From Candidatus Paceibacter sp. (GTDB taxonomy: Bacteria > Patescibacteriota > Minisyncoccia > UBA6257 > JAGOQP01): 64,000 bases of DNA. The translations under genes and the position numbers were made by a program. Each line of letters opens with the position of its first letter. Within the stretch, counting starts at the first letter, position 1. The stretch spans positions 1,431-65,430 of the forward strand of contig DYGB01000003.1 of assembly GCA_020724905.1 (NCBI GenBank). The letters are read 5' to 3'. This document shows, one piece after another, positions 3,059-63,695 of the stretch. The notes under the pieces are model-generated. The model did no database searches, was not told the DNA's origin, and worked only from the letters and a program-made list of their open reading frames with translations.

Positions 3059-3061
3059 CCT

Positions 3062-3517
3062 ATGGAGCATATTGAAGCGTATCTGGAAGAAACCCTCAAG
3101 ATAGCCCTTAAAGAACACGACAGCCACACAGCTGAGATTGTTCGTGGGCTTCGTTCTGTTATTCATAATGCAAGGATTGAGGCGCGAGAGAGAGGGGGTG
3201 AGATAGAAGACAGTGATATTATTGTCTTACTGAAGCGTGAACTTAAAAAGAGACATGAGTCAGCAGAGATGTTTGAAAAAGGTGGTGCAACAGAGCGGGC
3301 AGAAAAAGAGAAAAAGGAAGCAGTCTTTATTGAAACATTACTTCCTCCACAGCTTTCTCAAGAAGCACTTGAAGCTATTGTGCAGACAGTTCTACAAGAA
3401 CATCCTGACGCAACACAAAAAGATATGGGTATGCTTATAAAAGCAGTACTAGAGAAAGCAGAGGATGGAGCTGATGGAAAACGTGTTAGTGAAATGGTAA
3501 AAAACCATCTCTCATAA
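3062..3517 (+). CDS. GatB/YqeY-domain protein
   Basis: YqeY-like helical protein pattern (LKEHDSHTAEIVRGLRSVI...LLKRELKKRHESAEMFEKGG). Confidence 0.75.
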   Translation: MEHIEAYLEETLKIALKEHDSHTAEIVRGLRSVIHNARIEARERGGEIEDSDIIVLLKRELKKRHESAEMFEKGGATERAEKEKKEAVFIETLLPPQLSQEALEAIVQTVLQEHPDATQKDMGMLIKAVLEKAEDGADGKRVSEMVKNHLS

Positions 3518-11663: not shown

Positions 11664-12107
11664 ATGAGTTCTCCTGAGCGTATACGAAATGTTGTTGCAA
11701 GTATCATTGGGATACTTGCTTTTGGGGGCCTTTTTAATGCGCTTGCTATCTTTCATCAGTGGTACGGGGAAGCTGAAGAAAGTATTTCATGTGTGTTTGG
11801 AGGAGGGTGTGATACTGTTCTTTCTTCTTCCTATGCATCTTTATTCTCTATTCCTCTTAGTGTCTGGGGGATAGCATACTATCTCATTATTCTAACTCTC
11901 GTGCTTATATTTCTTGGAAGAAAGAATATCCATGTAATACGTCTTTTGATGGTAGGGGTGTTATGTGGACTTGCATTCTCCCTCTATCTTTTTTTGATAC
12001 AGGCACTCGTGCTTGGGACATTTTGTTCATCCTGTCTTCTCTCTTTTGCTGATGTTATCCTTATGACAGGTCTTATCATGGGATTTTTTAAACATATCGT
12101 ACGATGA
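11664..12107 (+). CDS. vitamin K epoxide reductase (VKOR)-family membrane protein
   Basis: 4-5 TM segments; Cys pairs CVFGGGC and CSSC with the downstream SIPLSVWG pattern as in VKOR/DsbB-like proteins. Confidence 0.6.
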   Translation: MSSPERIRNVVASIIGILAFGGLFNALAIFHQWYGEAEESISCVFGGGCDTVLSSSYASLFSIPLSVWGIAYYLIILTLVLIFLGRKNIHVIRLLMVGVLCGLAFSLYLFLIQALVLGTFCSSCLLSFADVILMTGLIMGFFKHIVR

Positions 12108-12976
12108 AATCACTTCGAGATACAGCACAAGAAGCAGTAGCGAATTATAAAGCAATTGGTCATTTTAATATTTCAAATAGAGAGGGCTTTAATGCAGTAT
12201 GTCTCGCAGCACAGAAAAAGAATGCCCCAGTTATCATAGGTCTTTCTGAAGGAGAAAGAGAGTTTCTTGGGCTTGATATAGTGGTTCGTATGGTACAGGA
12301 GGCACGAGAAACATATCAGATTCCACTCTATCTCAATGCAGATCATACACATTCACTTAAAGCTGTATATGAAGCAGTCCAGGCAGGATGTGATGCAGTA
12401 CTCTTTGATGGGACAGGTATGTCATGGGAAGAAAATATAGAACAGACAAAGAAGGCTCGGGAATATATAGATGCATATAATAAAAAACAAGGGACTGATG
12501 TTCTTTTAGAAGCTGAGGTAGGATATATTGGATCAGGTTCAGTTATTTTTGAAGATCTTCCAAAAGGAGTATCTCTTGATGATGCTTCTTTGACTACCCC
12601 TCAACAGGCAGAGACATTTGTGAAAGAAACAGGGGTAGATTTATTTGCTCCTGCGGTAGGGAATGTACATGGCATGTATAAAAATAAGAAGAATCCAGAA
12701 CTTGATACTAAACGCATTGGACAGATTGTAGAGCAGATAGATGCACATCTTGTCCTTCATGGGGGATCAGGGATTGATGATACTAATATGAAGGATGCTA
12801 TTAAAGCAGGAATAGGAATCGTTCATGTGAGTACTGAATTGAGAATTACCTGGAAGGAGGGGATTGAGGAAGCATTTGGAAAAGGAGAACTCGCTCCCTA
12901 CAAGGTAGCAGCATACGCACAAAAGAAGATGCAAGATGTTATTGAAACAAAATTAGCATTGTATGGATGGAACTAA
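12104..12976 (+). CDS. fba: fructose-bisphosphate aldolase, class II
   Basis: HFNISNREG, LNADHTHS, HGGSGI motifs. Confidence 0.85.
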   Translation: MKSLRDTAQEAVANYKAIGHFNISNREGFNAVCLAAQKKNAPVIIGLSEGEREFLGLDIVVRMVQEARETYQIPLYLNADHTHSLKAVYEAVQAGCDAVLFDGTGMSWEENIEQTKKAREYIDAYNKKQGTDVLLEAEVGYIGSGSVIFEDLPKGVSLDDASLTTPQQAETFVKETGVDLFAPAVGNVHGMYKNKKNPELDTKRIGQIVEQIDAHLVLHGGSGIDDTNMKDAIKAGIGIVHVSTELRITWKEGIEEAFGKGELAPYKVAAYAQKKMQDVIETKLALYGWN

Positions 12977-14138
12977 AAGAGGATTTACTCTTGTTGAGAT
13001 TCTTATCGCTATTGCCATTTTGGGTATTCTTTCTGCTGCATCATTTGTTGCAATAAATCCATCTGAACGATTTAAACAGTCTCGGGATACTGAGCGGGTT
13101 GCAGACATTTCAAACTTGAATACGTTAATAAGTCAGAAAAGATATTCTCATGTACGACGTGATTTGGGGAATGCTCAGGTAGTATATATTTCTCTTCCTG
13201 ATACATCTGCAACCTGTAGTTCATATACACTCCCTACACTTCCCTCAGGATGGTCATATGCATGTGTTGCCCAAGAAGATGTGCTCAATGTTGATGGGAC
13301 AGGATGGCTTCCTGTAGATATATCAGAATCACGAGCAATGAGTGCACTTCCTCTTGATCCGCTTAATACGCAAGACTATTTCTATGCCTATACTATTGAT
13401 AGTAATGAGGCGTTTGTATTAACATCAGCGCTTGAATCAGAAGAGAAGTTAAAAGGAACAGCTACAACTGATGGAGGAAATGATGATGTACGATTTGAAA
13501 AGGGGACTAATCTTGCTCTGTGGAGTGAAACACTCTCTTTGTTGGGGAAATGGAATCTTAATGATGGAAGTGGCTCAGTTGCAAAAGATGCATCTTCTGA
13601 ACAGAATGATGGGACAGTTTATAGTGGGGTATGGGAACAGGAGGATTGTATCTCAGGAGGATGTCTGTCATTTTCAGGGGCAACGTGGGTTGATTTAGGC
13701 AATTTGGGTGATCCTAATGCAGGAACAATTGCTTTATGGTTTAAGAAACCAAATATAAATTCGGGAGCTCAGTACTTTCTTGATGGAAGGGGAACGGGGA
13801 ATTGGTGGTTTTTACAAGACTATGTTTCTGGATCATGTACCGATTCAAATGGGAATGCCTGTTTTTATGGTAGAGTTCAAGCTCCATCTTCCTCTTTTTC
13901 CAATAATACGTGGCACCATCTTGTTTTAACAACAGACGGAAGTGCATCAAATATATATGTAGATGGAGATCTTATATCATCAGGATCAGGACTAGATCCT
14001 AACTTTACATCTGTGCGAGTGGGTGCTCGCTATACGACCACAAGTTTTTTTGTAGGGACGATGGATGAGATTGCATTATATGGAAGAGCGCTGACAGCCA
14101 CAGAAATAAATTCTCTATACAAGGCCCAATCAGAATAA
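12963..14138 (+). CDS. type IV pilin-like protein with C-terminal LamG/concanavalin-like domain
   Basis: Prepilin N-terminus GFTLVEILIAIAILGILSAASFV; C-terminal LamG-like pattern (WHHLVLTTDG...IYVDG...MDEIALYGRALTATEINSLY). Confidence 0.75.
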   Translation: MDGTKRGFTLVEILIAIAILGILSAASFVAINPSERFKQSRDTERVADISNLNTLISQKRYSHVRRDLGNAQVVYISLPDTSATCSSYTLPTLPSGWSYACVAQEDVLNVDGTGWLPVDISESRAMSALPLDPLNTQDYFYAYTIDSNEAFVLTSALESEEKLKGTATTDGGNDDVRFEKGTNLALWSETLSLLGKWNLNDGSGSVAKDASSEQNDGTVYSGVWEQEDCISGGCLSFSGATWVDLGNLGDPNAGTIALWFKKPNINSGAQYFLDGRGTGNWWFLQDYVSGSCTDSNGNACFYGRVQAPSSSFSNNTWHHLVLTTDGSASNIYVDGDLISSGSGLDPNFTSVRVGARYTTTSFFVGTMDEIALYGRALTATEINSLYKAQSE

Positions 14139-17451: not shown

Positions 17452-17551
17452 AATCTCTTGTGTACACTACAACAGAATAAAGACACAAACATGTATAACA
17501 ACTAGTATATATTTTATATATTTTTCTAGTTGCCTCGTTTATTTTTTTATT

Positions 17552-19285
<1,734 letters not shown>

Positions 19286-57310: not shown

Positions 57311-57382
57311 GCCACCTTAGCTCAGTGGTAGAGCAACTGTTTTGTAAACAGTAGGTCGTCGGTTCAAATCCGACAGGTGGCT
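57311..57382 (+). tRNA. tRNA-Thr(TGT)
   Basis: Perfect acceptor gccacct/aggtggc, anticodon loop ttTGTaa; terminator at 57385-57420. Confidence 0.8.
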
Positions 57383-57477
57383 CAAGAAAAAAAACGTTCT
57401 TTTTGGACGTTTTTTTTTGCGTAATTACTTTGTTATAATAGAATAGTATCTATACTTGGTGTCATTCTATTATCTTT

Positions 57478-58104
57478 ATGAAAAAGGATATGTTTCAAAA
57501 AGAGGAGTTGAAGAACTTGTATTTTATAGAAAATAGATCAATAAGGGATATAGCAAATATATCTTCCTGTTCAGAGGGAAAAGTAAATTATTGGTTCAAA
57601 AAATATAATATAAAAAAGAGAAACATATCGGATGCTATATATTTAAAACACCATCCAGACGGAGATCCTTTTTCTCTCCGCATGCCCAGAAATAAGAAAG
57701 AGGAGAGGCTTTTTGGATTAGGGATCGGCATCTTCTTAGGTGAAGGAAATAAAGTTGATAAGTCCACTATAAGAGTCGGGAATACTGACGTAACAATATT
57801 GAGAATATTTGTAACATTTTTATTAGTATTTTTTAATATACATAAGGACAACTTAAGATTTCATTTGCAAATATTTAGTGATGTTGATACAATTGAAGCG
57901 CAAAAGTATTGGATTAAGGAATTAGGTATTACAAAAAATCAATTTTATAAAACCTCAATTACCAAATCTATTAAAAAGGGGACTTATAAGCATAAAAATA
58001 AAAGAGGAGTTCTTACGGTTTATTACAGCAATGTAAAAGCACGAAAACTTCTTGATGACATTATAAGCCAATGTAGCTCAGTTGGTAGAGCAACTCCATG
58101 GTAA
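57478..58104 (+). CDS. hypothetical protein; weak HTH and LAGLIDADG-like (LFGLGIGIFLGEGNK) features
   Basis: ORF ends inside exon 1 of the intron-containing tRNA-Thr; similarity to homing endonucleases is speculative. Confidence 0.3.
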   Translation: MKKDMFQKEELKNLYFIENRSIRDIANISSCSEGKVNYWFKKYNIKKRNISDAIYLKHHPDGDPFSLRMPRNKKEERLFGLGIGIFLGEGNKVDKSTIRVGNTDVTILRIFVTFLLVFFNIHKDNLRFHLQIFSDVDTIEAQKYWIKELGITKNQFYKTSITKSIKKGTYKHKNKRGVLTVYYSNVKARKLLDDIISQCSSVGRATPW

Positions 58105-58341
58105 GTCTTTTGCCCTTCTCAATGGAAACGTTGAGAAGAATCCCGAATAACGGTTAAAGGCCTTTGTATAGGTTCAGACCGTAGCGTTATATACGCTCGA
58201 ACGACTGACAAGGGAGGCTACGGTTCTTGTGGAGCTATGCCTAAGATACAGTCTAATCCTCTTGTATAAATACAGTAGATATGATAAAAGAAGAGGTATT
58301 CATGAAGGAGTAGGTCACCGGTTCAAATCCGGTCATTGGCT
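58067..58341 (+). tRNA. tRNA-Thr(GGT) interrupted by a ~202-nt intron in the anticodon loop (probable group I)
   Basis: Exon 1 58067-58102 (gccaatg ta gctcagttggtagagc a actcc atggt); exon 2 58305-58341 (aa ggagt aggtc accggttcaaatccggt cattggc t). Acceptor and anticodon stems pair perfectly only across the insertion. The intron follows U36 and ends in G, with an S-like AAGATACAGTCT and an R-like TTCAGACCGTAG. Confidence 0.65.
58103..58304 (+). ncRNA. probable group I intron within tRNA-Thr(GGT)
   Basis: See tRNA entry; no ORF inside. Confidence 0.55.
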
Positions 58342-58360
58342 CAAGATATAAAATAAAGAT

Positions 58361-58531: not shown

Positions 58532-58569
58532 TAAAAAACCTGGTATCATACCAGGTTTTTTCTTTCTTG

Positions 58570-58640
58570 CGGGGCCACTAGGATTTGAACCTAGATCAGC
58601 GGTTTTGGAGACCGCCATTCTACCATTGAACTATAGCCCC
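58570..58640 (-). tRNA. tRNA-Trp(CCA)
   Basis: ggggctatagttcaatggtagaat..., anticodon loop ctCCAaa. Confidence 0.75.
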
Positions 58641-58765: not shown

Positions 58766-59497
58766 ATGAATAAAGTAATAGTAGTACTTTTGTTTATAGG
58801 TGTTTTTATGAGCAATATATTTGCTCAAACATATTTACAGATTGGGGCAGACCCAGTCGAAATCACTCGAGGGCTTGAGCCAGGACGTATGTGGGTCAAG
58901 TACAGCGAAGACGTTATAGGTTATACGAACTCTGGTAGCGGTAAGTGGTCATGGGGTATTATTCGAGCTGGAGAGATTTTTGATATCGCAATACAAGATT
59001 ATGAAAATGATGCGGTACAAGATATGGTTATTGCTCATTGCGGGAATGATTTTTATATTCCTGAAGGGGGTAGTGCTCATACACTCCCGCGAAAAAAGAA
59101 ACTTGAAAAGAGCAAAATTCAAGTTATTATTTCTCATGATCAGTTAAAAGCTCAAGGGGGATGCATTACCGAGGAGCAGTATAACCAGTTAAGAGATGAT
59201 CATAATTTTATTATCTCTCTGCTCGGTAACATGAATGGCACCCTTAATGAAACAAATAAGCGGACAAAAAGCATTCAAGAACTCATTATAGAGATGAAGA
59301 ATAGAATGTCAGGGCAAGGGGAAGGATCTGACAGTGACGATGATTCTGGTGCTGGATTTTGGAATACTGCAAAGTGGGTAGGTATTGCAGCTATTGTTGC
59401 ATGGGTTATCTATGAGGTGGTTAAGATGTTCATAAATGATGATAATGGTGGGGATAAGGCTCCAATAGGCGGCCCGGCTCCAGATCCATGGAATTAG
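58766..59497 (+). CDS. secreted protein with C-terminal TM anchor, unknown function
   Basis: Signal peptide MNKVIVVLLFIGVFMSNIFAQ; TM near the C-terminus. Confidence 0.5.
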   Translation: MNKVIVVLLFIGVFMSNIFAQTYLQIGADPVEITRGLEPGRMWVKYSEDVIGYTNSGSGKWSWGIIRAGEIFDIAIQDYENDAVQDMVIAHCGNDFYIPEGGSAHTLPRKKKLEKSKIQVIISHDQLKAQGGCITEEQYNQLRDDHNFIISLLGNMNGTLNETNKRTKSIQELIIEMKNRMSGQGEGSDSDDDSGAGFWNTAKWVGIAAIVAWVIYEVVKMFINDDNGGDKAPIGGPAPDPWN

Positions 59498-59672
59498 TCT
59501 TTTCTGATTTATTTGTAATGGTACACGGGAAGTAGCGGCTCTGTAATATAGAGCCGCATTTTTTTTAGATATATCTAGGACACAATTAGATGTATCTAGA
59601 AAGGTATTGACAACAGTCAGTACATTATATATAATGTATGCTACACCATAAATAAATGGAATAATCATAATT

Positions 59673-62600
59673 ATGACAATCTTAAAGAGAATAACAGTAG
59701 TAGTTTTAATGGTCGGAACAGTTCTTGTTGGAACTGGGCCTCTATTTCCCGTTGAAGCTATCACCACCGCAAAATCAACCAATATAGTCGAAGGAGGCTC
59801 TTCTGGAGTTGCTCCAGTGACAACATCAATAACAAAATCCACTGAATCAGCTACTGTTGTTACCGAAGGAACATCAACAACTAACACATCACTTCGTTCA
59901 GTAGTGCGTGTTGATGATGTCAAAAAGACAACCTCAGGAACTTCTTCAGTGAAAGTTGTTAAAGAAACAGTTTCAGATCCAACAGTAGGAAGTATTGTAA
60001 AAGATACAAAACTACAAGTATTTGAAGAAAAAGTAGTTGAAGGAGAAGAAACAACAGAAGAAATAACTGGAACCGCATGGTTTAATACTGATCCACAAGA
60101 CAAGAAAACACTTCGAACTTCAAACTATTCTCGAAATCCACAGTGTAATACCTGTTGGGAATCAAGTACCTATGCATCACAAGGAGAAATTGTGAGTTTT
60201 GTTGTGTACTATCACAATACGTCAAACAGTATTGCAGAAGATACACGTATCAATCTTTCAGCATCTCCACAATATAGTAATAACAAGATTGTTGTTACCT
60301 CAAATCTCTGGGCAGGTAATGCAGATACAGTAACTGACACGGTTGACGTTATGATGGAATCGGGTTCATCAGAACCATGGAATGTATCGTTTGATGCTGC
60401 CTTCTGGTATCCCAATCAAGATTCAAATAATCCAGATCCACTTCCCTATGGACAGAATGGATCAACAAGTCTTTCCTCATCAGGAGTACGTATTGGAAAT
60501 ATAACTCCAGGATGGGCAAGTCAAGGATACTTAGTTATACGTCTTTTACTTGAAAAGAATGGTGGAGGAGGAAATGAACCATCATCACCACGTGTTGTTA
60601 CAACAGATGCAACGAATATAGGGAAAACAGAAGCGACAATTAATGCTGATATTACTCCAAATGGACTTGCAACACAGTACTGGTTTGAGTATGGAAAAAC
60701 ACGTTCTCTTGGAACGGTAACACTTCAAAAGACACTTGCTTCAAGTGGATATGATGCAGAGTCAGTTAATCAGGAATTACGAGGCCTTACTCCAGACGCA
60801 GTATATTATGTACGTGCAGTTGCAAAGAACAGCCAAGGAAAAACCTATGGAAATATAAAAGAATTTCGTACAGTTTCTGTTGATGGTCTACGAGCCCCAG
60901 AAGTACAAACTCTTTCCCCAGACACTATCACCAGCTCATCAGCACGACTCAATGGAAGAGTGAACCCACATGGCCTTGCAACTACCTATACCTTTGCCTA
61001 TGGAACATCACAATCATTAGGTAACACAGTCACAACACATTCAGCAGGAAATGGATCAAGCTGGAAAGATGTCTCATTTACCCTTTCTGGACTTTCTTCA
61101 GATACCACCTATTACTATCGTATTGAGGCAACCAATGAAAAAGGAACAGTATATGGAGACATCATGTCTTTCTCAACACAAGGAACAACAGATCCAACTG
61201 GTGCTCCTATTGTCTCAACATTATATCCTTCAAATATAACTCAAACACAGGCAACGCTTCAAGGAACAGTAAATCCACAAGGACTCTCAACACAGTACTG
61301 GTTTGAATATGGAACAACGGCAAATCTTGGAAATCAAACAAGTGTATCATACGTATCAGGAACTGGGTTTAGCACAGTGAGCGTAGAAAAGGCACTTTCA
61401 GGACTCTCTCCAGATACACAGTATTATGTTCGAATTGTTGGAGAGAATAATAAAGGAACAACCTATGGAACATTAGTATCATTCAGAACAGATGATGCTG
61501 GAGGTGGAGGGGGAAATGCTCCGTTTGTTGAAACTATCGCAGCAGACAATATTACCGGAACTGCAGCTCGAATAAAGGGTACAGTTAATCCACAAGGAGT
61601 TACTGGTACTTATTGGTTTGAATATGGAACAACACCACAGCTTGGTACCGTTACCATACAACAGTCAATTAGTGCTATTTCATATAATCTTTCAGTATCA
61701 CAGAATCTTCGAGGATTAGATGAAAATACTACCTACTTTTATCGAGTTGTTGGAAAGAATGCCACAGGAAAAACATATGGAAACATCATGTCTTTCTCAA
61801 CAACAGGAGGAGGGACAACAGGATCAGCCCCAGAAGTACAAACTCTTTCCCCAGACACTATCACCAGCTCATCAGCACGACTCAATGGAAGAGTGAACCC
61901 ACATGGCCTTGCAACTACCTATACCTTTGCCTATGGAACATCACAATCATTAGGTAACACAGTCACAACACATTCAGCAGGAAATGGATCAAGCTGGAAA
62001 GATGTCTCATTTACCCTTTCTGGACTTTCTTCAGATACCACTTATTACTATCGTATTGAGGCAGATAACAGTAAAGGAAGAGATGTTGGTGATATATTTA
62101 GCTTTACCACAGAAGAAGGTGGGGGAGGAGGAGACTTTACACCAACAGCGGTGACACAAAGTACAATCAATATTACCTCAAATTCTGGAACAATCAGAGG
62201 AACAGTAAATCCAAAAGGATTCACTGGTACCTACTGGTTTGAATATGGAACAAACGAAACATCACTTGGTTCACAAACAACACACAGTACTATTTCTGCA
62301 ACGACAGACAATACAGATGTGTCAGCTAATATTAGTGGTCTAAGTGAAAATACTTCTTACTTCTACCGTGTTGTTATTGAAACAGCCATGGGACGAGCAG
62401 TCGGAAGCACTCTCTCATTCCTTACCGCAGGAGGCGGTGGAGGAGGCGGAGGAGGCGGTGGAGGTGGACCACGAGCTCCATTGACACAAACCTGGAACTC
62501 ATCAGATATTACTCAGAATACTGCTATTCTTTACGGAGGAGCACTCGCAAATGGATCAACAGCATATGGATGGTTTGAGTACGGAGAAAATCGATACAAT

Positions 62601-63695
62601 CTTTCTCAGACAACACAAGAGGTTCGAGTTGAATACTCTTATGACATTGAGCCATTCCAACAGGGTATTTCTGGATTGAAGAGAGGAACTACCTATTACT
62701 TCCGTGCAGTTGCACGAAACAACTATGGAGAATCAAAGGGTCAGATACTTTCATTTACCACCTTTGGTGAAGGAAGTACCGGACAGATTCCTTCGGTAAC
62801 AACACAACTTCCTACCTTTACTTCTCAGAATGCATTGATTCTCTCAGGTTCAGTAAATCCAAATGGAACATCAGATACCAAGGCATGGTTTGAGTACGGT
62901 GTCACTGCAACACTTGGTTCACAAACAGGTTCTCGTGACATTGGTTCTGGAACTCAGTCAGCACAGTTTGCCTATGCACTTACAGGACTTACCCCAAATA
63001 CCTCTTACTTCTACCGAGCAGTTGCGCAAAACGAATACGGTATTGTGAAAGGAGCTATTCTTGTAGGGACAACGCGATCTGTTATAACTGGTCCAATCCC
63101 TCCAAACCCAACTCCAGTTCCAACACCAATTGTTGTGCAGACATCAAGCACAGGAGCAGGATCATGTCTTCTCCTTATGCCAACACTTGATACCACAGGA
63201 CTAGATGAAGGAGAACCATTTATCTTCTCAGTATCATATACCAACAACTGTACCTATGATCTTGAGAACGCATATCTTAAAGTTATTCTCCCAACAGAAA
63301 CAGTATACCAATCAACAAACTTCCCATTCTTTGACAGAGATGCAAATGGTATCACCTACAACTTGGGAACAGTACGAGCAGGAGCACAATCATCTATCAG
63401 TCTTGAAGGAGAATTAAGTGGTGGAGCAAATATAGGAGATAGTGTTATCTTCAGCTCTGTCCTTAATTACATTGACCCTGAGGAACAACCACAATCAATT
63501 AGTGCCTATCTTACCGCACAGGTAACCTCAGAAAGAACCCTTACTGCTACTATCTTAGATGCCCTTGGTGGACTCTTTGAATCATGGTGGTTTAGCCTTC
63601 TTCTCTTACTCCTCGTTCTTGGTCTTATCTTCTGGATTTTCTTTAGAAAGAGAAAGGGAGAGGAAAAAGAACAGGTTGATGTGTTAAAAGTATAA
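59673..63695 (+). CDS. giant cell-surface protein: N-terminal signal/TM, ~9 tandem fibronectin-III-like repeats separated by Gly-runs, C-terminal CARDB/DUF11-like domain and TM anchor
   Basis: Repeating W(F/Y)EYG...LG...T...GLSPDTxYYYR(I/A)VA.N..G.TYG...SFxT units; C-terminal WWFSLLLLLLVLGLIFWIFFRKRKGEE membrane anchor; terminator hairpin at 63705-63732. Confidence 0.7.
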   Translation: MTILKRITVVVLMVGTVLVGTGPLFPVEAITTAKSTNIVEGGSSGVAPVTTSITKSTESATVVTEGTSTTNTSLRSVVRVDDVKKTTSGTSSVKVVKETVSDPTVGSIVKDTKLQVFEEKVVEGEETTEEITGTAWFNTDPQDKKTLRTSNYSRNPQCNTCWESSTYASQGEIVSFVVYYHNTSNSIAEDTRINLSASPQYSNNKIVVTSNLWAGNADTVTDTVDVMMESGSSEPWNVSFDAAFWYPNQDSNNPDPLPYGQNGSTSLSSSGVRIGNITPGWASQGYLVIRLLLEKNGGGGNEPSSPRVVTTDATNIGKTEATINADITPNGLATQYWFEYGKTRSLGTVTLQKTLASSGYDAESVNQELRGLTPDAVYYVRAVAKNSQGKTYGNIKEFRTVSVDGLRAPEVQTLSPDTITSSSARLNGRVNPHGLATTYTFAYGTSQSLGNTVTTHSAGNGSSWKDVSFTLSGLSSDTTYYYRIEATNEKGTVYGDIMSFSTQGTTDPTGAPIVSTLYPSNITQTQATLQGTVNPQGLSTQYWFEYGTTANLGNQTSVSYVSGTGFSTVSVEKALSGLSPDTQYYVRIVGENNKGTTYGTLVSFRTDDAGGGGGNAPFVETIAADNITGTAARIKGTVNPQGVTGTYWFEYGTTPQLGTVTIQQSISAISYNLSVSQNLRGLDENTTYFYRVVGKNATGKTYGNIMSFSTTGGGTTGSAPEVQTLSPDTITSSSARLNGRVNPHGLATTYTFAYGTSQSLGNTVTTHSAGNGSSWKDVSFTLSGLSSDTTYYYRIEADNSKGRDVGDIFSFTTEEGGGGGDFTPTAVTQSTINITSNSGTIRGTVNPKGFTGTYWFEYGTNETSLGSQTTHSTISATTDNTDVSANISGLSENTSYFYRVVIETAMGRAVGSTLSFLTAGGGGGGGGGGGGGPRAPLTQTWNSSDITQNTAILYGGALANGSTAYGWFEYGENRYNLSQTTQEVRVEYSYDIEPFQQGISGLKRGTTYYFRAVARNNYGESKGQILSFTTFGEGSTGQIPSVTTQLPTFTSQNALILSGSVNPNGTSDTKAWFEYGVTATLGSQTGSRDIGSGTQSAQFAYALTGLTPNTSYFYRAVAQNEYGIVKGAILVGTTRSVITGPIPPNPTPVPTPIVVQTSSTGAGSCLLLMPTLDTTGLDEGEPFIFSVSYTNNCTYDLENAYLKVILPTETVYQSTNFPFFDRDANGITYNLGTVRAGAQSSISLEGELSGGANIGDSVIFSSVLNYIDPEEQPQSISAYLTAQVTSERTLTATILDALGGLFESWWFSLLLLLLVLGLIFWIFFRKRKGEEKEQVDVLKV

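Follow-up and report, generated by a model that had tools for sequence, protein, structure and literature searches.

A probable group I intron in the anticodon loop of tRNA-Thr(GGU) and an adjacent tRNA-linked open reading frame in Patescibacteria

We analysed a 64,000-nucleotide (nt) stretch of Candidatus Paceibacter sp. DNA (GenBank assembly GCA_020724905.1, contig DYGB01000003.1, positions 1,431 to 65,430 of the forward strand; hereafter the window, in whose numbering coordinates are given), in which the gene for tRNA-Thr(GGU) is interrupted within its anticodon loop. Comparative analysis of the interrupting sequence and its relatives makes it highly probable that the insert is a group I intron whose structure includes the P3/P7 pseudoknot. 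The predicted splice site reads GGU|...G|AAGGAG and falls between tRNA positions 36 and 37 (36/37), with U at intron position −1 and G at the terminal (omega) position. An open reading frame (ORF) lies directly upstream of the tRNA gene, and its relation to the intron is considered separately below.

Results

A split tRNA-Thr(GGU) gene

The first-pass annotation of the window had proposed a tRNA-Thr(GGT) split by an insert of about 202 nt at 58103–58304, and the two halves (Table 1) indeed formed a perfect 73-nt tRNA when joined. The joined cloverleaf contains 7/7 acceptor pairs, a 4-bp D stem, 5/5 anticodon-stem pairs and a 5-bp T stem, shows the usual U8, G18G19, U33 and GTTCAAATCC, and has no CCA encoded in its 3′ exon. 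ARAGORN identified the joined exons as tRNA-Thr(ggt) and, when introns were allowed, reported tRNA-Thr(ggt) i(37,202) at 58067–58342 in the genomic DNA; the gene went unseen in window scans with default ARAGORN and with Rfam at gathering thresholds. The long-intron call tRNA-Thr(cgt) i(34,1012) at 12792–13894 was rejected as a ghost located inside an aldolase gene (12104–12976) and a pilin-like gene (12963–14138), and the occurrence of this ghost in the same window means that an intron-tolerant ARAGORN call alone is insufficient evidence for a split tRNA-Thr. Judged by sequence comparison, the split is nevertheless beyond chance, since the joined product is identical at 66/73 positions to tRNA-Thr(GGT) genes that lack an interruption in related genomes (L057, L019), and the split recurs at no fewer than ~170 other loci.

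These relatives came from two collections. A profile built from an alignment (A1) of 38 homologues of the upstream ORF matched 441 species genomes, all belonging to Patescibacteria/candidate phyla radiation (CPR); 80 loci were fetched from these, and 75 had enough downstream sequence to be resolved. An insert of 165–241 nt interrupted tRNA-Thr(GGT) at 52 of the 75 resolvable ORF loci (69%) and was absent from 23. Metagenome contigs were scanned separately for the intron-core pattern GAACGACTGACAANGG...AANATACAGTC, which yielded at least 120 loci, each resolvable one being a tRNA-Thr(GGT) with an insert of 169–254 nt at the same site. The labels "tRNA-Arg(gcg)", "His" and "Pro" assigned by ARAGORN in related loci were discarded, as each stands for tRNA-Thr(GGU) called with a splice point that is 1–4 nt off. 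Across at least ~170 homologous loci, every resolvable intron was located in tRNA-Thr(GGT) at 36/37, showing that this intron family is restricted to a single site, tRNA-Thr(GGU) 36/37. For structural analysis, 55 distinct homologous introns from Patescibacteria genomes were aligned with MAFFT (alignment A2), to which the counts out of 55 given below refer.

Covariation supports a group I fold

The secondary structure was drawn by hand on the window sequence (intron positions 1–202 corresponding to 58103–58304) and comprises 50 pairs in ten helices, P1–P9 and P9.0 (Table 1). All 50 pairs are standard in the window copy, which also shares all 54 invariant columns of the A2 alignment. In this alignment, 94.5% of the cells were paired, compared to 29–43% when the 3′ partners were slid by 1–3 columns, and compensatory changes affecting both sides were found in 31 of the 50 pairs; the observed pairing values were reached by 0 of 500 shuffles on any measure. 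RNAalifold, run de novo from the alignment alone, recovered P2, P4, P5, P6, P7, P8 and P9. This comparative structure, together with the U−1·G pair, the omega G, the P3/P7 pseudoknot and P9.0, bears out the earlier proposal of a bacterial-type group I intron in the anticodon loop.

Table 1 Predicted features of the split tRNA-Thr(GGU) locus, in window coordinates (intron numbering in brackets)
Feature	Position	Strand	Description
ORF	57478–58104	+	208 amino acids; N-terminal helix-turn-helix and conserved alpha/beta domain; not part of the intron
tRNA-Thr(GGU) 5′ exon	58067–58102	+	36 nt, ends AUGGU; GCCAATGTAGCTCAGTTGGTAGAGCAACTCCATGGT; acceptor 5′ strand, D arm, anticodon stem 5′ strand, loop nt 32–36; U36 is intron position −1
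Group I intron (probable)	58103–58304	+	202 nt, no ORF; IC3-like architecture; covariation on 55 homologues, RNAalifold, weak Rfam match
P1 hairpin	58100–58114	+	Exon GGU 58100–58102 with internal guide GCC 58112–58114 (intron G10-C11-C12)
P2 hairpin	58115–58138 (13–36)	+	10 bp, GAAA (GNRA) loop L2; compensatory changes in 9/10 pairs
P3	58142–58144 (40–42) with 58212–58214 (110–112)		CCC with GGG; pseudoknot with P7
P4	58150–58155 (48–53) with 58177–58182 (75–80)	+	Invariant except U·G to C-G in two sequences
P5	58159–58163 (57–61) with 58170–58174 (68–72)		Enclosed by P4; four pairs with compensatory changes
P6 hairpin	58183–58197 (81–85 with 91–95)	+	AGCGU/ACGCU; compensatory changes in 4/5 pairs
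R element	58198–58214	+	CGAACGACUGACAAGGG; J6/7 CGA, P7 5′ strand, J7/3 ACAA, P3 3′ strand GGG
P7	5′ strand 58201–58207		A99(C100 bulged)G101–G105 with C147–U152; 5′ strand A(C)GACUG, 3′ strand CAGUCU
P8 hairpin	58215–58242 (113–140)	+	Compensatory changes in all four outer pairs
S element	58243–58254	+	AAGATACAGTCT; J8/7 AAGAUA and P7 3′ strand CAGUCU; nearly invariant in the 55 introns
P9.0	58256–58257 (154–155) with 58302–58303 (200–201)		AU with AU
P9	58258–58263 (156–161) with 58291–58296 (189–194)		Enclosed by P9.0 (58256–58303); compensatory changes in 5/6 pairs
Omega G	58304 (202)	+	Final intron nucleotide
tRNA-Thr(GGU) 3′ exon	58305–58341	+	37 nt, starts AAGGAGU; AAGGAGTAGGTCACCGGTTCAAATCCGGTCATTGGCT; A37 A38, anticodon stem 3′ strand, variable loop, T arm, acceptor 3′ strand, discriminator U73

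Individual helices showed the substitutions expected of maintained pairing in the catalytic core as well as at its periphery. The P3 helix changed from C-G to U-A at two of its three pairs, and P7 was paired in 100% of the cells, its pair across the bulge switching from A-U to G-C in two sequences to give the textbook G(A)GACU form; the P7 pocket would bind guanosine. Neither pair of P9.0 was ever unpaired, one being G-C in 29 and A-U in 26 introns and the other U-A in 29, C-G in 22 and U·G in 4. The closing pair of P6 was G-C in 38, A-U in 12 and C-G in 5 introns, and the L2 loop was GNRA in 53 of 55. The P8 motif CUAAG...UAUG, akin to the 11-nt GAAA-tetraloop receptor, was present in 15 of 55 introns, 12 of them with L2 = GAAA, and the window copy carries the receptor-like variant CUACG...UAUG. 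The S-like element noticed at 58243–58254 in the first reading corresponds to J8/7 plus the 3′ strand of P7 and agrees with the Rfam consensus AAGAUAUAGUCu. The "R-like" element TTCAGACCGTAG noticed at 58173–58184 does exist, but folding and alignment reassigned it to the P5 3′ strand, J5/4 and the P4 3′ strand, the true R element being located downstream.

The intron architecture appeared IC3-like: P1 is short, P2 is capped by a GNRA loop, both P2.1 and P5abc are absent, and a simple P9 is accompanied by P9.0. J3/4 is GAAUA and J4/5 is AAA in the window intron, and the J3/4-P4 and J6/7 sequences depart from the classical IC3 consensus. Some family members contain additional 40–70-nt hairpins in the P1 loop, P6 or P8 that encode no ORF (for example at 3060–3120 of locus L028, at about 3250–3330 of L016, and in the P8 regions of L021 and L049); these are peripheral sites at which group I introns commonly take insertions.

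Several observations weigh against assigning the insert to group I. The helices P3 (3 bp) and P1 (3 conserved bp) are short, although a short P1 is usual for tRNA introns. The z-score of the single-sequence minimum free energy was modest (−2.58), and a structure drawn on the window sequence has an inherent advantage over the slid controls, a bias from which the compensatory changes are free. P10, described below, is weak in the window and its register is not conserved. Finally, the Rfam model RF00028 (Intron_gpI) scored only 17.3 bits on the window (E = 0.058) against a gathering score of 50, and the 5′ end of its alignment was misplaced into the upstream ORF, making it unusable for boundaries. 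The same model aligned the S element and P9, and reached 34.9 bits on the homologue L003. The Rfam Intron_gpI seed contains no bacterial sequences, as stated by Williams 2020 (bioRxiv 10.1101/2020.01.27.920355), and the low score is therefore attributed to a limit of the model rather than of the RNA. The Rfam check had been suggested with the first reading of the DNA, and its poor outcome contrasts with the strong backing of the structure by covariation. Detection of group I introns is not among the design aims of tRNAscan-SE (PMC8450103). Since tRNAscan-SE was not built for such introns and the Rfam model is weak, the suggestion that a missing tRNAscan-SE call or a missing group I model match should count against the intron does not provide a valid test.

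Splice sites, P1 and P10

Both the window intron and the 3′ exon begin with AAG, so that the window sequence by itself permits any junction from 36/37 to 39/40. Among the 55 distinct homologues, however, 34 have an intron whose first base is non-A (G or T), and these place the 5′ junction unambiguously after U36. Of the two splice points between which the first-pass annotation had hesitated, 36/37 was thereby retained and 37/38 dismissed, whereas its placement of the insert after U36 with a terminal G needed no revision, both the U at −1 and the omega G being present in 55 of 55 aligned introns. The P1 pairing that could not be confirmed by eye in that annotation is also present, formed by the exon GGU and the intron GCC, and its three core pairs are invariant in 55 of 55: G34 and G35 make G-C pairs, and U36 makes a wobble pair with G10 at the 5′ splice site. 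The P1 stem can be extended by pairing of intron A1A2G3 with U7U8U9. An alternative pairing of the U-run at 58108–58111 with AAGG/AGGA of the 3′ exon would constitute P10. In most homologues, CCU precedes the GCC guide and can pair with AGG of the 3′ exon.

The anticodon stem showed a related sequence bias. C30-C31/G39-G40 was found in ~95% of the intron-bearing tRNA-Thr(GGU) genes and in 4 of 19 intron-less genes beside the ORF (loci L008–L207); all the Peribacteria loci were intron-less. This CC/GG bias could fit P10 (the AGG of the 3′ exon pairing with the CCU before the guide) or a homing-site requirement, or could simply reflect phylogeny.

Proposed splicing and alternative explanations

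The RNA most likely splices itself in the cell to leave a functional tRNA. In the proposed pathway, the precursor would fold so that the last exon bases GGU pair with the guide GCC in P1, placing the U36·G10 wobble at the splice site, and a free guanosine held in the P7 pocket would attack after U36. The terminal G202 would next occupy the same pocket, its register set by the 2-bp P9.0, and the 3′-OH of U36 would attack after G202, ligating the exons into a tRNA with the loop AUGGUAA and freeing the intron. RNase P and CCA addition would finish the tRNA. These steps follow standard group I chemistry.

Two other explanations of the insert deserve consideration. It may be a dead insertion that turned tRNA-Thr(GGU) into a pseudogene, leaving the ACY codons to be read by another tRNA such as tRNA-Thr(UGU). 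A second tRNA-Thr with the UGU anticodon is encoded ~700 nt upstream (57311–57383), and default gene finders do not call the interrupted gene, both of which would suit such a loss. A decaying insertion, however, would show neither conserved helices nor intact exons, whereas this insert has been kept at the same site in at least ~170 loci with 54 invariant columns and with compensatory changes preserving ten helices, and its exons are perfect cloverleaf halves in every locus; a pseudogene is accordingly very hard to credit. Removal of the insert by proteins, through an endonuclease and a ligase of the archaeal/eukaryal type, or by a group II or other ribozyme, was considered because the anticodon loop also houses protein-spliced introns and because the Rfam group I model remained below threshold. 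Protein-spliced introns canonically occupy 37/38 rather than 36/37, 202 nt is far below the size of a group II intron, and the insert matched no Rfam family besides Intron_gpI and tRNA. With the group I hallmarks in place (the U−1·G pair in P1, the omega G, the P3/P7 pseudoknot, a bulged P7, J8/7 AAGAUA and a covarying P9.0), we assign next to no probability to these other modes of removal, and a group I intron that splices itself is the explanation we prefer.

Comparison with known introns

The introns of Azoarcus tRNA-Ile(CAU) (Ile2.5Ug), Agrobacterium tRNA-Arg(CCU) (Arg.5Ug) and cyanobacterial tRNA-Leu(UAA) (Leu.3Ug) are ORF-less anticodon-loop introns of ~200–250 nt in which P1 is short, P2 ends in a GNRA loop, P5abc is absent, and both P9.0 and omega G are present. 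All three share size class and architecture with the tRNA-Thr intron, and those of Azoarcus and Agrobacterium are likewise inserted at 36/37. They reside in other host tRNAs and phyla, and their core differs at J3/4-P4 and J6/7-P7. They have been shown to splice themselves, whereas the tRNA-Thr intron is known here from its sequence.

Group I introns in some CPR tRNAs were mentioned briefly by Lui et al. 2021 (PMC8172020). The catalogue of bacterial tRNA group I introns by Williams 2020 (bioRxiv 10.1101/2020.01.27.920355) lists 21 settings, and its seed alignment includes a Thr.5Ug type represented by Rba53.Thr.5Ug (tRNA-Thr, insertion after GGU, U−1, omega G). By its sequence features, a location in tRNA-Thr after loop position 5 (U36) with U−1 and omega G, the window intron is assigned to this already catalogued type. 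It resembles the Rba53.Thr.5Ug seed sequence in the anticodon GGU, the insertion after the third anticodon base, U−1, omega G and the P1 pairing GGU/GCC. The cores differ: Rba53.Thr.5Ug has the classical IC3 sequences AAAUUCGGGGAAA ... AAUCCCGAGCC and GUAGAGACCA, in contrast to GAAUAACGGUUAAAG ... AAGACCGU and CGAACGACUGACAA in the Patescibacteria Thr family. Among the same seed sequences, Mba143.Tyr.4Ug and Pgr210.Thr.2Ug were closer to the Thr-family core than Rba53. These two and a tRNA-Tyr intron at locus L056 share with the Thr family an unusual P3-P4 (GAUAACGGUGAAA ... ACCGU) and the S element AAGAUAUAGUCC, along with size and overall architecture, but are found in another tRNA or at another loop position, have a longer P3 (6 bp), and contain the canonical P7 sequence GUAGAGACUA instead of the A(C)GACUG of the Thr family.

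The L056 intron was encountered in a related metagenome-assembled genome (MAG), where a tRNA-Tyr(GUA) gene at 2135–2429 contains a 212-nt group I intron (2171–2382) at GU|A, between U35 and A36. Both its R element (GUAGAGACUA) and its S element (AAGAUAUAGUCC) are canonical, its P3-P4 is like that of the Thr intron, and it corresponds to the Tyr.4Ug type of Williams.

An ORF linked to the tRNA gene

The upstream ORF overlaps the tRNA 5′ exon by 36 nt in the window, its stop codon TAA consisting of U36 and the first two intron bases. At most loci, the ORF instead ends 10 nt into the tRNA, with a TAG stop formed by U8-A9-G10 and a C-terminus reading ...LLP[LM]; the window copy uses another frame. 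Its nearest relatives were found in Parcubacteria/Paceibacteria MAGs. AlphaFold modelled both the whole protein and its C-terminal domain with confidence (predicted local distance difference test, pLDDT, scores of 90.4 and 91.5, respectively) and predicted an N-terminal helix-turn-helix (HTH) followed by an a-b-a-b-a-b-b-a domain. The HTH was the sole recognised domain (Pfam HTH_23 in 21 and HTH_28 in 17 of the 38 family members), and the PHROG matches were to DNA-binding regions of "HNH endonuclease". The A1 alignment revealed 22 invariant residues, including G80xG82xG84xxxG88-E89-G90, N102 and D135.

We considered whether the ORF codes for a LAGLIDADG protein and rejected this identity, which was unsupported by Pfam, PHROGs, the PDB profile search and Foldseek (twice against PDB, once against BFVD). 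The window protein was unmatched by Pfam LAGLIDADG_1/2/3, with LAGLIDADG_3 appearing in just 3 of 38 members at E ~0.07; the profile search against PDB sequences returned no LAGLIDADG enzyme at E up to 10; Foldseek, run against PDB once for the whole model and once for the isolated domain, returned no nuclease family; and the alpha-beta-beta-alpha-beta-beta-alpha fold of solved LAGLIDADG enzymes was not recovered. Foldseek against BFVD gave weak matches to phage proteins annotated as LAGLIDADG. The glycine-rich G80-x-G82-x-G84-x-x-x-G88-E89-G90 segment lies at the C-terminal end of helix 73–89, and its resemblance to the LAGLIDADG motif is local only. A search with the A1 profile retrieved close family members only, giving no bridge to a known family.

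Linkage of the ORF to the intron was evaluated in two samples, the 75 resolvable ORF-bearing genome loci and 91 intron-bearing metagenome loci with at least 700 nt of upstream sequence. The ORF family was directly 5′ of tRNA-Thr(GGU) in 75 of 75 genome loci, with or without the intron. Among the 91 intron loci, 33 had a full ORF, 48 had none, and 10 had remnants beside the tRNA in which the ORF was truncated or internally deleted. The ORF and the intron thus occur independently, and it is with the tRNA gene rather than the intron that the ORF is associated. The ORF was also rejected as a maturase needed for splicing, as about half of the intron-bearing loci are devoid of it; these 48 loci and the 10 remnants indicate that splicing does not require it. 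It behaves as a dispensable site-specific cassette of ~0.7 kb between tRNA-Tyr or tRNA-Thr(UGU) and tRNA-Thr(GGU). Our literature searches found no description of its linkage to tRNA-Thr(GGU).

Our guess from these sequence features is that the ORF is a mobile or homing gene. It may be the founder of an undescribed homing-type gene family at the 5′ edge of tRNA-Thr(GGU), marked by the U8-A9-G10 stop, which together with the Thr.5Ug intron would turn this one tRNA gene into a target for two selfish elements that may cooperate; in this full form the idea is speculative and rather unlikely. A precedent is the collaborative homing reportedly described by Zeng, Bonocora and Shub in 2009, in which the free-standing endonuclease F-CphI is encoded beside an ORF-less group I intron of cyanophage S-PM2 psbA. 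The two systems are alike in having an ORF with a DNA-binding domain just outside a gene with an ORF-less group I intron, each of patchy occurrence. They are unlike in that no nuclease domain was identified in the tRNA-Thr ORF, known here from sequence, and in that this ORF is linked to the tRNA gene rather than to the intron.

How closely the ORF and the intron are tied can be weighed from the same counts. If they formed one mobile unit, with the ORF product cutting intron-less/ORF-less alleles so that repair copies both, or if the ORF product acted as a maturase, their proximity would be expected: the ORF adjoins tRNA-Thr(GGT) in every genome locus, and the intron is present in 69% of these. 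Selfish genes typically behave as this cassette does, present or absent within a conserved tRNA cluster and leaving remnants in 10 loci. The N-terminal HTH is similar to DNA-binding domains found in phage HNH endonucleases, and the weak Foldseek matches to LAGLIDADG-annotated phage proteins point in the same direction. Yet 23 of 75 ORF loci are without the intron, 48 of 91 intron loci are without the ORF and 10 more retain only remnants, and no nuclease family emerged from Pfam, the PDB profile search or Foldseek against PDB, so that a single cooperating unit seems to us improbable, though worth keeping in view, and a maturase is rejected as above. That the ORF is instead an ordinary, vertically inherited Patescibacteria gene that has become fixed beside this tRNA by chance and is unrelated to the intron, such as one for an HTH-type transcription factor belonging to the tRNA/rpmG cluster, is a serious possibility, if short of an even one. 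The HTH as sole recognisable domain, the name "predicted transcriptional regulator" given to the homologue P0106 in one source, the wide distribution (441 species genomes), the good conservation (22 invariant residues) and the presence of the ORF with and without the intron would all agree with such a gene. They have to be set against its loss from about half of the intron-bearing loci and its degradation in others, and against a coding end inside the tRNA, usually at the U8-A9-G10 stop, a tight site-specific junction that one would more typically expect for an inserted element than for a regulator.

Genomic context

The surroundings of the tRNA gene differed from the tRNA-rpmG-tRNA-Trp order preceding secE-nusG that had been expected in the first reading. 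The tRNA-Trp gene (58569–58640) is inverted here, on the minus strand; most related loci have it after rpmG in the same orientation. Downstream there is no secE-nusG, and 58766–63695 is occupied by two unrelated ORFs. Between rpmG (+) and tRNA-Trp (−), a hairpin of 13 perfect base pairs with A-runs and T-runs on its flanks (58533–58561) can serve as a two-strand terminator. The ORF at 59673–63695 (+; 1340 amino acids) contains many tandem repeats of ~95 amino acids ("TxYWFEYGT...", "YYYRxxAxN") as well as stretches of as many as 14 glycines, and it probably encodes a large surface protein. Rfam confirmed at 80 bits (18983–19233) the 16S group I intron cited as a further sign of intron tolerance. 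The whole Rfam model of bacterial small subunit rRNA (SSU) aligns to 17546–19042 and overlaps this match by 60 nt; the insertion is near the 3′ end of 16S, and both that end and the insertion point are provisional.

Discussion

These findings leave current understanding intact and overturn none of it. Their most immediate bearing is on annotation, as default ARAGORN, tRNAscan-SE and Rfam at the gathering score miss the intron-bearing tRNA-Thr(GGU), and genomes of the CPR would consequently appear to be without this tRNA even though they have the gene and it most likely works. To RNA biology, the family offers more than 170 copies at one site, rich covariation, and a compact core off the classical IC3 consensus; better covariance models could be built from it, and it could become a small model ribozyme. 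In the study of mobile elements, the ORF linked to tRNA-Thr(GGU) offers a candidate that can be tested as a new site-specific mobile gene, in organisms whose genomes are very small.

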